A DNA stretch of 39,515 bases from Candidatus Udaeobacter sp. (GCA_040414975.1 JBEDUS010000200.1:1-39515), one strand, 5' to 3'; counted from the first letter of the stretch, positions 9,184 through 16,580 are shown. The notes: a model not told the origin generated them from the letters alone. Numbers and translations: made by a program.

Positions 9184-10311
9184 CTATCGGCTGGCAACTA
9201 TCCGCCCATACAATGCTTCGTATCGAGGGAGCACGCGATCTGCTGAGAACATTTTGCGCACGCGCGTGCGACTCCGTTCACCCAGTGCACGGACCAAATT
9301 CGGAGATTCAACCATTGCATCTAACGCAGCAGCAGCAGCCTCTACATCACCGAAAGGATACAGGGGATAAGAATCCCCGATAACTTCCCCAATCCCGCCG
9401 ACACGAAAGGCGACGACCGGTTTGCCATAAAACGCGGTCTCGAGAATGCTCAGACCGAAGCTTTCGTATTCGGATGTGTAGAGTCCGGCGTCCGCAGCCT
9501 GCAAATACTCCTCCACGGAAGCTGTGTTTCGACGAACAATGACGCTGTCGCGGAGTTTCAATTCGTCGAGCAACGGTTCGTAAGGATCAAAAGGGCCGCC
9601 TGCTAAAATGAACAATCGAAGCCGCTCACGCTTCTTCGACGCAGCAATTATGCGCAGCAACAGATCAATGCGCTTCACGGGTCGCAAATTCGACATATGT
9701 AGCACAAGGAATTTGTCCGTTACGCCCAGGTTGAGTCGAACCTCCTCGCGGCTTCTCTTCGGTTTGTTCGGAGTGAAGAAATTCGGAATCACTTCAATTG
9801 GGCGTTTCAAACGAAAAATTTCCCGGGTTTGATCGCGAAGGCTTTCTGACACTGCCGTCACCGCATCGGAATGCACAAGGGCGTGCTCGATGGCGGTGCG
9901 GTAATCTGGATCCTGACCCAGCAGAGTGGTATCGCTGCCGTGCAAAGTCGTAACGATGCGCGGTGCTGACGCTCCTACAATCTGCGAGGCTAAACACGCG
10001 GCGAGTGCGTGTGGGACTGCATAATGAACATGAAAAAGATCGAGCTGCTGCGAACGCGCCACTTCCGCCATTTTCACCGCGAGCGGCAGAGTGTAATCGG
10101 GACATGGAAACAGGGCGTTGTCCGCAAATTCGATTCGATGAAAATGAAGCCCCTCCTGCGGCAGATCTAACCGAACTGGTTGGGCGTAACTGAACAAGTA
10201 AACTTCGTGACCGCGGCGCGCCAGTTCCGACCCCAGAGCCGTGGCCAAAATCCCGCTCCCGCCAATCAACGGAAAACATGCTATCCCGATTTTCAGGGCC
10301 CCCGATTTCAT
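9184..10311 (-). CDS. bshA: GT4 glycosyltransferase, BshA-like (N-acetyl-alpha-D-glucosaminyl L-malate synthase family)
   Basis: The N-terminus LKIGIACFPLIGGSGILATALGSELARRGHEV, then HVHYAVPHA, TTLHGSDTTLLG and the E..ESFGLS.LE..A.G.PV block track Bacillus BshA along the whole length, as I recall that sequence. Confidence 0.65.
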   Translation of the reverse strand: MKSGALKIGIACFPLIGGSGILATALGSELARRGHEVYLFSYAQPVRLDLPQEGLHFHRIEFADNALFPCPDYTLPLAVKMAEVARSQQLDLFHVHYAVPHALAACLASQIVGASAPRIVTTLHGSDTTLLGQDPDYRTAIEHALVHSDAVTAVSESLRDQTREIFRLKRPIEVIPNFFTPNKPKRSREEVRLNLGVTDKFLVLHMSNLRPVKRIDLLLRIIAASKKRERLRLFILAGGPFDPYEPLLDELKLRDSVIVRRNTASVEEYLQAADAGLYTSEYESFGLSILETAFYGKPVVAFRVGGIGEVIGDSYPLYPFGDVEAAAAALDAMVESPNLVRALGERSRTRVRKMFSADRVLPRYEALYGRIVASR

Positions 10312-11090
10312 CCCAGTTCCGTATAAGCTCTGTCGAAGTCGGAAATTTGGTCGCGCTGGATGAATTTCACGTCGGGAGCGTCCGCCTTGTTAATGTAATG
10401 CTGTTCGCTCGCACCAGCGACGTAGTGCGTGCATCGAATCACTGATTGCATCCAACGAAAGCGTGTATCGCGGGTCGGGCTGATTTGCTCCGGACCAAAT
10501 ACCCCTGCTGGAATTTCGAGAAACCGATCGCCTCCTTTGTGCAGCAACAATTTTCCGTCGCGATAACGTGCGCGAACGATCTCTCCGTCGTACTGCTGAT
10601 CCACGAAATAGTCTGAAACTGGCACGGCGCGCGCTCTGAACTCCGGCGCACTGGATCGCTCCACCTTCATACGTTTCAACAATCCCATTCGCGTGTACAT
10701 CTCGAGACAGAAGTCGGCAACATTTGGACATTTGGTTTCCTTAAAATGTTCGACCAGAGATCGCGCGACATAATTCGAGAGTTGCCGCGCAGTTTTCTCG
10801 CGCCATTCCGGAACAACGCGTTTGGCATATAACGGCGAGAACTGCTTTTGAATCCGATTCTCAAACTGAAAATTCAGGGCTGCTTCCTTGTCGGTGTTTC
10901 GGTCTCGCAAAATGGTAACTGTCTCGCGCGGGTCGTGATCACTGTCATGAAAGAAAAAGACGATTTCTCCCCCTATCTCCCTTTGAAGACGACGGGCCGC
11001 TGAAATCTTAGCGACCAAAAATCGCTTGGGAAAAAATCCGCACGGCTGCTGGCCGAAACAAATAATCGGATGATCCATCGCCCAGAACAA
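10308..11090 (-). CDS. Short (256-260 aa) protein resembling the N-terminal domain of bacillithiol synthase BshC
   Basis: FGQQPCGFFP.....AKI is followed ~35 aa later by VFFFHDSDHD. BshC has (G)GQQ.GL..GPLY...KI then (I)FW.AGEDHD. The stop overlaps the bshA start (ATGA). The start is either TTG 11090 or ATG 11078. It is only about half the length of canonical BshC (~540 aa). Confidence 0.3.
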   Translation of the reverse strand: MFWAMDHPIICFGQQPCGFFPKRFLVAKISAARRLQREIGGEIVFFFHDSDHDPRETVTILRDRNTDKEAALNFQFENRIQKQFSPLYAKRVVPEWREKTARQLSNYVARSLVEHFKETKCPNVADFCLEMYTRMGLLKRMKVERSSAPEFRARAVPVSDYFVDQQYDGEIVRARYRDGKLLLHKGGDRFLEIPAGVFGPEQISPTRDTRFRWMQSVIRCTHYVAGASEQHYINKADAPDVKFIQRDQISDFDRAYTELG

Positions 11091-11093
11091 ATT

Positions 11094-15507: not shown

Positions 15508-15512
15508 AGGTC

Positions 15513-16580
15513 TTAATTGATATCCTGCTTCGCTTCCAGTCGGTCGATCAGTGCTTGGATGCTCTGTTTTTGCGCATCTAAAGGCGCGGCAGCTTGTGCC
15601 TGCTTAGCATCGCTGGTCGCGCCCGCGAAATCGCCTGATGCAGACTTGATCCGGGCCCGAGCCAGATCTCCATAGACTCCGTGCGGATCCCGTTTGGAAA
15701 CCTCTTGGAAAATCTCCATCGCTTCAGCCCCCTCCTTCCGACTCTGTAAACCTCGACCATAGGAATAGAGCTGTACGGGAGTGGCAATTTGGACCGCGCG
15801 GTTCCAGGCAGTTTTCGCCTCGTCCGGACGGTTCAAGGCTTTAAGGATGTCAGCTTTGGTGCTGAGATTTTCAAACCTTTCCTCATTCTGAATTGAGGCA
15901 TCGGCCCAACGCAGTGCTTCATCGAGATTAATTTTTCTGGTCAAACAAAATTGTGCCGCTTGGTTCGGGGCTTGCCAGGCAAACTGGCCTCCGCCTTTCA
16001 TTTGACCTCGAATATTCTGCAACGTCTGGTCAGCATCCTTGACCGACACGGTGAATGGAACACCCAACTTTTCCCATTTCAGCGTCACCGCCGTCGAATC
16101 TGGTTTCAAATCTTCGAAGTCGTATTCAAGGGCCTCTTTCGACTCCGCGAGGGGCTTCGGTTTCACATTCACGCGCAAGGCGTCTTCGTCCTGCTTATAG
16201 CTGTAGCTACCCCACCCTGTGTTTGTTTTTGAAAAGATCACCGTCCACGAATCAGGATTCGGAATCATATGCAGCCCATAGGTTCCTTTGTCCAACGGCT
16301 TGCCCTCCACCGACACCGGATCGCTGAATTCAATCGTCGTGTTTTCGTTAGCCCCCGCACGCCAAACTTTGCCGTACGGGACGAGGCCGCCCCAAATTTT
16401 TCGACCTTTCACCAACGGCCGATGGTAATTGACCGTAATATCCGTCAGGGCAATGCGCTGTTTGACCTCCGCCGCCTGGCTGGCATCAGGTAGCTTCAAA
16501 TCGCTTTGCGCAGAAACATTTCCGGCCAGCGCGAGAATAGACAGACAAAGAGCAAACGGCTTAAGCGTTATTGTTTTCAT
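15513..16580 (-). CDS. Periplasmic DUF2911-domain protein with C-terminal TPR repeats
   Basis: Signal peptide MKTITLKPFALCLSILALAGNVSA. LTDITVNYHRPLVKGRKIWGGLVPYGKVWRAGANENTTIEF...GTYGLHMIP matches the DUF2911 core as I remember it. The C-terminal third is TPR-like. Confidence 0.75.
   Translation of the reverse strand: MKTITLKPFALCLSILALAGNVSAQSDLKLPDASQAAEVKQRIALTDITVNYHRPLVKGRKIWGGLVPYGKVWRAGANENTTIEFSDPVSVEGKPLDKGTYGLHMIPNPDSWTVIFSKTNTGWGSYSYKQDEDALRVNVKPKPLAESKEALEYDFEDLKPDSTAVTLKWEKLGVPFTVSVKDADQTLQNIRGQMKGGGQFAWQAPNQAAQFCLTRKINLDEALRWADASIQNEERFENLSTKADILKALNRPDEAKTAWNRAVQIATPVQLYSYGRGLQSRKEGAEAMEIFQEVSKRDPHGVYGDLARARIKSASGDFAGATSDAKQAQAAAPLDAQKQSIQALIDRLEAKQDIN

Follow-up and report, generated by a model that had tools for sequence, protein, structure and literature searches.

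A conserved verrucomicrobial gene cluster joins BshA and a half-length BshC-like protein to a probably exported LmbE-family enzyme and a sodium symporter

Introduction

Bacillithiol is made by the BshA-BshB-BshC pathway, which is known from Bacillota, Chlorobiota, Bacteroidota and Deinococcota. In Bacillus subtilis, bshC is found in a different operon from bshA and bshB1, and the BshC step is the unresolved step of the synthesis, with an activity that has never been reconstituted (PMC4360819). Here we describe six consecutive genes on the minus strand, from 16580 to 9184, of a 39,515-nucleotide stretch of DNA from Candidatus Udaeobacter sp. (GCA_040414975.1 JBEDUS010000200.1:1-39515), called the window below. 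The cluster resembles the bacillithiol pathway in an equivalog-level BshA, in a BshB1-like gene that is present in its relatives, and in a probable remote homologue of the BshC core. It differs in that the third enzyme, here called mini-BshC, has 256 amino acids (aa) compared to approximately 540 aa for BshC, and in that the genes stand in one operon, together with those of a symporter and of an LmbE-family enzyme that is very probably exported. In soil and ocean, few bacteria are more abundant than the Verrucomicrobia, for which the operon offers a concrete, testable candidate for a thiol pathway.

Several parts of the cluster can be compared to described proteins. BshC (YllA of B. subtilis; structure 4WBD; PF10079 and PF24850; TIGR03998) has a Rossmann-like core and, by profile alignment, collinear motifs in common with mini-BshC, which lacks the first ~85 residues and the coiled-coil dimerisation domain and has conserved Cys and His residues of its own. 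The LmbE/PIG-L amidohydrolases, family CE14 of CAZy, are represented by MshB, Mca, BshB1, BshB2 (Bca) and diacetylchitobiose deacetylase, and these have the PIG-L fold signature and metal motifs in common with the N-terminal domain of the enzyme described here. The latter, called the large PIG-L below, is 3-4 times longer and has NEW3-like and further C-terminal domains. It also begins with a signal peptide; the known enzymes of thiol pathways, in contrast, are found in the cytoplasm, and BshB1 and BshB2 measure only ~220-240 aa. Some sodium:solute symporter (SSS) family transporters work with small accessory membrane proteins, as in ActP with YjcH and the two-component symporters of the VC_2705 type. 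As in those systems, a short single-pass protein is encoded directly upstream of the SSS gene and coupled to it. In contrast to them, the 39-aa protein of this cluster belongs to no described small-subunit family, and the transporter scores only 32 bits on the VC_2705 large-subunit model.

Searches of the literature found no paper that links bacillithiol to verrucomicrobial genera, or Udaeobacter to thiols or glutathione, and no description of bacillithiol uptake or recycling. A 2025 RefSeq census, in which BshC had to be of similar length with a coverage of at least 80%, makes no mention of the phylum in its main text (PMC12719100); with such length and coverage filters, a 256-aa protein would be excluded. 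The BshA/BshB/BshC pathway is known, the mini-BshC family is new, and the envelope module is without a described counterpart for sugar-thiols.

Conservation of the cluster

All six open reading frames (ORFs) that the preliminary description of this DNA had listed were found where it had placed them, tightly packed on the minus strand. In the direction of reading, they encode a DUF2911 protein with TPR matches (355 aa, 15513-16580), the large LmbE/PIG-L-family amidohydrolase (~841 aa, 12913-15438), a 39-aa single-pass membrane micro-protein (12797-12916), an SSS/SLC5 sodium:solute symporter (568 aa, 11094-12800), mini-BshC (256 aa, 10308-11078) and BshA, a family 4 glycosyltransferase (GT4; 375 aa, 9184-10311). 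The junctions described earlier could also be read from the sequence: an ATGA overlap between the large PIG-L gene and the micro-ORF, a GTGA overlap between the micro-ORF and the SSS gene, and an ATGA overlap between the 256-aa gene and the GT4 gene. The gap between the SSS gene and the 256-aa gene is 3 nt if the latter starts at TTG 11090, which would give 260 aa, or 15 nt if it starts at ATG 11078; the ATG is favoured because the homologues measure 255-256 aa. The DUF2911 stop codon lies 5 nt ahead of TTG 15507, from which the large PIG-L ORF is 864 aa long. The likelier start is TTG 15438, which stands 7 nt after GGGAG and gives 841 aa, as in many of the orthologue calls, and GTG 15432 is an alternative. 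Starts at TTG 15438 or GTG 15432 leave a gap of 74-80 nt after the DUF2911 gene, in agreement with the 5 nt or ~80 nt reported before.

The nearest homologues carry the labels Candidatus Udaeobacter, Chthoniobacterales or Verrucomicrobiota. When one genome per GTDB species was scanned, at least 570 relatives of the 256-aa protein were found; among the best 80, nearly every label is Verrucomicrobiota, and most are Chthoniobacterales or Udaeobacter. A further 80 loci came from a scan of metagenomes in which distant members of the 256-aa family served as seeds, and some of these are marine contigs with protein clusters named for Opitutales, Opitutae or Candidatus Pelagisphaera.

Synteny was counted in 159 related loci, with the testable loci as denominators; single loci named in this text are numbered with L. 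The SSS gene is immediately upstream of the 256-aa gene in 109/111 loci, the large PIG-L gene is upstream in every testable locus (85/85), and the DUF2911 gene is upstream of the large PIG-L gene in 69/74. BshA is encoded downstream of mini-BshC in 103 of 104 loci. The genes flanking the cluster (YidC, Jag, YkuD) differ from locus to locus, and the junctions within it are 3-25 nt or overlapping. The linkage is kept down to 39% identity for the large PIG-L and 42% for BshA. This arrangement is far beyond chance. Conservation of the neighbourhood had been proposed as a test of the preliminary description, and the cluster proved to be kept across two orders, the Chthoniobacterales and the marine Opitutales. 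The core order in many verrucomicrobial relatives is large PIG-L, micro-protein, SSS, mini-BshC, BshB and BshA; the Udaeobacter-type lineage, including the window, dropped bshB from the operon.

Cluster proteins approximately 80-90% identical to those of the window were also seen in metagenome-assembled genomes labelled Dormiibacterota, Nitrospirota, Limnocylindria and Binatia (L007, L030, L036 and the protein P0276). These are most likely mis-binned Udaeobacter-type contigs.

In one marine Opitutales contig (L117), the cluster is flanked by genes for an AhpC/redoxin-thioredoxin-like protein and a rhodanese-thioredoxin fusion (2288-3424 and 11296-12021), which is consistent with a thiol-redox neighbourhood.

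A half-length, probable relative of BshC

The 256-aa protein had no match in Pfam or NCBIfam, including a Pfam search with ten family members up to E=10, and neither single-sequence nor profile searches against PDB sequences gave a match. Every source name given to its homologues is "hypothetical protein". When 1.84 billion cluster representatives were searched exhaustively with phmmer, the matches were confined to 238 clusters. Among the 150 of these that were listed, the intact-looking members are ~250-270 aa long, and none has the ~540 aa of a full-length BshC.

The relationship to BshC was found through the fold. An AlphaFold2 model built from a 10-sequence alignment reached a mean predicted local distance difference test score (pLDDT) of 93.6 and a predicted TM-score (pTM) of 0.90; a single-sequence model, with a pLDDT of 47, was set aside. 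Against the PDB, Foldseek gave one match below 1e-3, the B. subtilis BshC structure 4WBD (E=3.2e-10, probability 1.00, query TM-score (TMq) 0.62). Weak matches to class I aminoacyl-tRNA synthetases followed, as is expected of the BshC fold.

Profile-profile comparison pointed in the same direction. Sixteen members of the mini family were aligned, and BshC was represented by the B. subtilis sequence, verified against 4wbd_A, and four sequences from a plasmid collection (Bacillus, Paenibacillus, Staphylococcus and Deinococcus). hhalign aligned the two families with a probability of 71% and E=3.7e-5 over 219 columns, collinearly, from residues 7-235 of the mini family to 87-359 of BshC; an unrelated negative control gave E=0.17. 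With a single BshC sequence the E-value was 0.076, and it improved to 3.7e-5 once the four further BshC sequences were aligned. The alignment ends at BshC residue 359, so that mini-BshC is without both the N-terminal ~85 residues and the C-terminal coiled-coil domain (PF24850).

The conserved motifs of the two families coincide along this alignment. CFGQQPCG of the mini family stands against VVGGQQAG of BshC, HDSDHDxRE against AGEDHDxDE, RSSDP against xSGDP, PEQISPTRDTR against PERFSNNVVTR, and YVAGxxExxY against FVxGPGExxYW. The forms common to both are GQQxG, DHDxxE, (S/G)DP, PE..S....R and G..E..Y. The Opitutales member from L117 also gave a sub-threshold match to TIGR03998 in the same region (18 bits, E=0.0011) and matched no other family. 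The window protein itself did not match PF10079 or TIGR03998 up to E=10, in a search in which the positive control, Staphylococcus aureus BshC, reached 628 and 420 bits on TIGR03998 and PF10079, respectively. Since the BshC hidden Markov models (HMMs) miss the window protein, it is formally outside the BshC family as now defined.

Judged from the modelled fold and the aligned profiles, the 256-aa protein, predicted to be cytoplasmic, is probably a remote homologue of BshC that consists of its Rossmann-like core minus the coiled-coil, and it represents an unannotated family. The half-length BshC-like protein of the preliminary description is thus borne out, by fold and profile-profile methods only. 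The existence of such proteins explains why BshC searches filtered by length and E-value would miss the pathway. Also, a natural 255-aa version, in which the conserved core motifs alone are kept and whose predicted structure is of high confidence, suggests a minimal catalytic unit, and a simpler protein for biochemistry and structure work on the BshC step.

Six residues of the 256-aa protein, C7, H44, H48, C124, C216 and H218, are invariant or nearly so in the mini family and are without counterpart in the aligned BshC sequences. These conserved Cys and His may form a metal site like the one with which CysRS and MshC recognise cysteine.

Gene context ties mini-BshC to the bacillithiol steps independently of the fold, through its linkage to bshA and to BshB1-like genes. 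Outside the Verrucomicrobia, pairs of mini-BshC and BshB1-like genes were found at L081 10001-11430, L083 1590-3660 and L090 5207-7277. In the archaeal case, a family member with 44% identity stands tail-to-tail with a BshB1-like PIG-L gene, on a contig where genes for PolD, Cdc6 and an eIF-5/eIF-2B-domain protein are close by. In a bacterium from hypersaline sediment the genes run gatA, GNAT, mini-BshC, BshB1-like, gatB, and this set between gatA and gatB resembles the MshB/MshC/MshD logic of mycothiol synthesis. The occurrence of mini-BshC beside BshB-like genes in an archaeal contig and in another bacterial lineage suggests that the pathway may exceed its current annotation. No full-length BshC was found in the 1.9 Mb of related loci.

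BshA and the small BshB1-like deacetylase

The GT4 of the window scored 348.3 bits on TIGR03999, the NCBIfam equivalog model for BshA (cutoff 273.7), over residues 6-372 of 375, and also matched Glyco_transf_4 and Glycos_transf_1 of Pfam. Its orthologue in L071 scored 403 bits on TIGR03999. By these family models, the protein is a bona fide BshA, and the BshA-like assignment of the preliminary description is strengthened to equivalog level.

A second PIG-L gene was found in 28 verrucomicrobial loci, including the complete chromosome OZ244652.1 (L071), where it encodes a 238-aa protein between mini-BshC and BshA. The best family of this small protein is BshB1 (TIGR04001), with 140 bits, below the cutoff of 182.5, and some sources name its homologues "N-acetylglucosamine malate deacetylase 1" or BshB1. 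All 28 of these loci have the large PIG-L gene in the same operon, which suggests that the large PIG-L is an addition and not a substitute for BshB. The three-enzyme biosynthetic set would, therefore, be complete in these relatives, and the exported enzyme and the symporter would be an extra module. The BshA/PIG-L/BshC set proposed in the preliminary description holds for its BshA and BshC-like members; the large PIG-L, in contrast, is not the counterpart of BshB, given the separate BshB1-like gene of the 28 loci.

Protein-database searches gave 1283 homologues of the small BshB compared to 6683 of mini-BshC. None of the 120 small-BshB homologues that were listed is named Udaeobacter; those listed are from other Chthoniobacterales.

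A different insert occupies the place between mini-BshC and BshA, where others have bshB, in three Chthoniobacterales loci (L042, L053 and L058). In L053 the insert encodes 176 aa, of which the N-terminus resembles a signal peptide, and the protein is not evidently related to PIG-L.

The large PIG-L and the DUF2911 protein

The large PIG-L matched PF02585 of Pfam with 56.3 bits (gathering threshold 28.2, E=6e-15) over residues 83-217, and had a weak NPCBM_assoc/NEW3 match. Its conserved motifs are AHPDDE, RGxGGQN, DFGFSK, HGHH and MHKSQG, in which the His/Asp/His positions of the metal ligands are kept; AHPDDE and HGHH are present in every aligned orthologue. On the models of the bacillithiol deacetylases, it scored 19.7 bits for BshB1 (TIGR04001, cutoff 182.5) and 27.4 bits for BshB2 (TIGR04000, cutoff 195.25), and it was also far below the MshB cutoff. 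Only the N-terminal domain matched solved structures, namely LnmX, MshB and diacetylchitobiose deacetylase. For the C-terminal domains, the PDB profile search returned only sub-threshold, flavodoxin-like hints.

The preliminary description had the 864-aa protein probably outside the cytoplasm on account of a signal peptide or lipobox. In every verrucomicrobial orthologue examined, the leader consists of a positively charged n-region, some 10-15 hydrophobic residues and a site of the AxA type, and conserved mature sequence follows directly; one example reads MLAKPRFLVALLALVSLPLAARA/AEAP. A leader that varies in sequence and keeps its character is the signature of a cleaved Sec signal, and from these alignments the large PIG-L is very probably exported by Sec. 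The lipoprotein reading was rejected. The lipobox Cys is found in only some of the orthologues, so that the large PIG-L is not generally a lipoprotein, and of the earlier claim the conserved signal peptide stands and the lipobox does not.

The DUF2911 protein scored 184.2 bits on PF11138 (gathering threshold 27, E=1.6e-54), and its TPR matches are weak. Its N-terminus, MKTITLKPFALCLSILALAGNVSA/QS, reads as a clear signal peptide, which predicts that the protein is secreted. A form of 211 aa without TPR is encoded in L097. No relative of the DUF2911 protein was found in the PDB.

Distant full-length homologues of the large PIG-L, with 26-29% identity, are encoded on plasmids of Bacillus (L087, CP085711.1), Parasedimentitalea (L088, NZ_CP033223.1) and Aminobacter (L089, NZ_CP015006.1), with the match at ~8000-10400 in each. 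All three loci include a ROK regulator, an annotated ABC transport system and an argininosuccinate-lyase-like gene, and the two alphaproteobacterial ones also have a PfkB kinase. The Bacillus copy has a signal peptide and the alphaproteobacterial copies have none. As a speculation, these loci could be a catabolic route for an N-acetylglucosamine (GlcNAc)-dicarboxylate such as GlcNAc-malate, by deacetylation, elimination of fumarate and phosphorylation of glucosamine (GlcN).

The symporter and its micro-protein

The symporter scored 219.2 bits on TIGR00813 (cutoff 184) and 125.7 bits on PF00474 (SSF; cutoff 22.8, E=2.8e-36) and, by these models, is a bona fide SSS member. Its nearest solved relatives are NIS, SMVT, SMCT1 and SiaT (E=1e-42 to 1e-34), ahead of the SGLTs. 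It is thus closest to carboxylate and anion carriers and not to those of neutral sugars, which fits a malate-bearing substrate. The SSF matches cover residues 33-298 and ~387-548, and the ~85-residue insert between them (about 300-385) is rich in charged residues.

The 39-aa micro-protein belongs to no Pfam family. Among 52 distinct nucleotide variants of the micro-ORF, the differences concentrate at third codon positions, and there are 11018 synonymous compared to 6600 non-synonymous changes. This pattern indicates purifying selection and, therefore, a real gene. A small ORF with an (F/L)xxWRxxY motif and a transmembrane segment occupies the same position in Chthoniobacterales and Opitutales. 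Because of its position and translational coupling, the micro-protein is probably a small subunit of the symporter.

Proposed pathway and alternatives

We propose, with a probability of about one half, that the cluster forms a single operon for a bacillithiol-type low-molecular-weight thiol, and that of its two halves, an envelope half feeds the last step of a biosynthetic one. In the biosynthetic half, BshA would join UDP-GlcNAc and L-malate to give GlcNAc-malate. A small BshB1-like enzyme, encoded in the operon in many relatives and presumably elsewhere in the genome in the Udaeobacter-type lineage, would deacetylate it, and mini-BshC would add cysteine, or a similar group, to the resulting GlcN-malate. 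The envelope half would consist of the secreted DUF2911-TPR protein, the secreted ~840-aa LmbE-family enzyme, and the Na+ symporter with its 39-aa membrane subunit. It would process an extracellular or periplasmic compound of the GlcNAc/GlcN-malate type, such as GlcNAc-malate, bacillithiol, its disulfide or its conjugates. The exported enzyme would act either as a deacetylase on GlcNAc-malate or as an amidase of the Bca/Mca type on bacillithiol, its disulfide or its conjugates. The symporter would import the product, GlcN-malate, as a direct substrate of mini-BshC, in salvage or recycling.

The gene identities, the export signals, the homology by fold and profile, and the deep synteny are directly supported, and the biosynthetic part of this proposal is well supported. 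We infer the salvage part, along with the substrates of the large PIG-L and the symporter, the chemistry of mini-BshC and the existence of the thiol. Salvage would explain why an enzyme of a deacetylase/amidase family and a transporter stay tied to the last-step enzyme, and why relatives have one LmbE enzyme in the cytoplasm and a second, exported one. The distant full-length homologues of the large PIG-L, which likewise have sugar uptake systems as neighbours, also speak for the two-half proposal. The scheme suggested in the preliminary description, with deacetylation in the periplasm, Na+-coupled import and re-elaboration in the cytoplasm, would be a reasonable hypothesis. A fuller version is offered tentatively: Verrucomicrobia would make bacillithiol or a derivative with a minimal 255-aa cysteine-adding enzyme and would run an extracytoplasmic recycling or salvage loop, composed of the secreted LmbE enzyme, a two-subunit Na+ symporter and recharging by mini-BshC.

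Several observations weigh against the two-half proposal. The hhalign probability was only 71%, a HMMER profile of the mini family did not score the verified BshC sequence above 2000 shuffles, and searches at the level of HMMER made no connection between the window protein and BshC, so that the homology claim rests on the fold and profile-profile evidence. Among the thiol-pathway models, the large PIG-L scored best on Mca (TIGR03446), with 50.4 bits against a cutoff of 277. A cytoplasmic BshB is absent within 10 kb of the cluster in the window and in all Udaeobacter-type loci. The co-transcription of the six genes is presumed from their spacing only. Cysteine ligation by canonical BshC has never been shown in vitro (PMC4360819), and the chemistry of mini-BshC thus rests on an unproven template. 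Also, a 2018 survey listed the Verrucomicrobia as without a documented or predicted low-molecular-weight thiol (PMC6282198).

The main rival explanation, which we consider possible but unlikely, is that two unrelated modules are on one transcript. The envelope half would take up an amino sugar or an acidic glycoside for nutrition, BshA and mini-BshC would make a thiol separately, and no metabolite would be exchanged. The distant plasmid homologues of the large PIG-L, which lie in plainly catabolic sugar loci (ROK regulator, ABC sugar transporter, PfkB kinase), agree with this. The full BshA/BshB/mini-BshC set of the relatives also needs no external input. However, linkage in 85/85 testable loci from two orders, down to 39% identity and despite the turnover of the flanks, would be unusual for unrelated functions, as would the persistence of junctions that are 3-25 nt or overlapping.

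Another explanation is that the product is not a thiol. Mini-BshC would attach a group other than cysteine to GlcN-malate, or would use another amino sugar, and the product would be an osmolyte, a chelator or an envelope precursor that the envelope half recycles. Mini-BshC is only remotely related to BshC, lacks its N-terminal ~85 residues and coiled-coil, and has conserved residues of its own (C7, C124, C216 and H218) that BshC does not have; the chemistry of BshC is itself unsettled. The conserved motifs common to both families nonetheless argue for a BshC-like active site, BshA and the BshB1-like partner are closest to the bacillithiol enzymes specifically, and the L117 cluster is flanked by thiol-redox genes. 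We regard a non-thiol product as unlikely.

A further scheme, which we find slightly less likely, would be turnover of the cell's own exported thiol. The large PIG-L would be a Bca/Mca-type amidase that cleaves periplasmic bacillithiol, its disulfide or its S-conjugates into GlcN-malate and cysteine or a conjugate, and the GlcN-malate would be re-imported and recharged with cysteine. Such a scheme fits the ranking of the PIG-L domain, which is best on the Mca model (50 bits compared to 27 for BshB2 and 20 for BshB1), and it would explain why relatives have a cytoplasmic BshB beside the exported enzyme. The imported product would also be exactly the substrate of BshC. However, all of the family scores are so far below cutoff that an amidase and a deacetylase are not distinguishable, and the cluster encodes no thiol exporter.

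It is very improbable that the large PIG-L replaces BshB in the Udaeobacter lineage, with a hydrophobic N-terminus that does not serve export and a cytoplasmic activity on GlcNAc-malate: the missing small bshB between mini-BshC and BshA of Udaeobacter-type loci and the scarcity of its homologues (1283 compared to 6683, with no Udaeobacter among the 120 listed) would fit, but the leader with its n-h-c regions and AxA-type site in every verrucomicrobial orthologue examined, the coexistence with a small BshB in 28 loci and the negligible scores on BshB models argue against it.

If the fuller version is true, the cluster would be the first system described for taking up and recycling a sugar-based thiol, and would be to bacillithiol what the gamma-glutamyl cycle is to glutathione. 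Glutathione recycling in Gram-negative bacteria uses a periplasmic gamma-glutamyltranspeptidase. The proposed logic is alike: cleavage of a low-molecular-weight thiol or its conjugate outside the cytoplasm would be followed by import of a fragment and renewed synthesis of the thiol inside. The protein families are not related, and the likeness is one of analogy only. That mini-BshC is constantly paired with an exported LmbE enzyme and a symporter suggests extracytoplasmic processing of sugar-thiols or their precursors, followed by salvage. Such salvage would matter for nutrient exchange in soil, where Udaeobacter, which is genome-reduced, lives among bacillithiol producers.

Surroundings of the cluster

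The six-gene block is bounded by a divergent peptidoglycan-binding gene (16779-17258, plus strand) and a convergent YkuD gene (8554-9126, plus strand). The intergenic region 16581-16778, upstream of the first gene and shared with the divergent gene, is the presumed promoter region of the operon. A scan of the window for consensus promoters and terminators gave counts at the level of chance. The wider surroundings are chromosomal housekeeping genes, including rnpA, yidC, jag, dnaE and glnA.

Two other genes of the window were recorded. At 34590-35738 on the minus strand, 18 kb away from the operon, a gene encodes a 382-aa protein in which a DJ-1/PfpI domain is fused to a glyoxalase/bleomycin-resistance domain; glyoxalases that depend on bacillithiol are known from Bacillota. 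A short gene of the phage-integrase family (231 aa, 32463-33158, minus strand) adjoins glnA and is possibly a remnant or a small site-specific recombinase.

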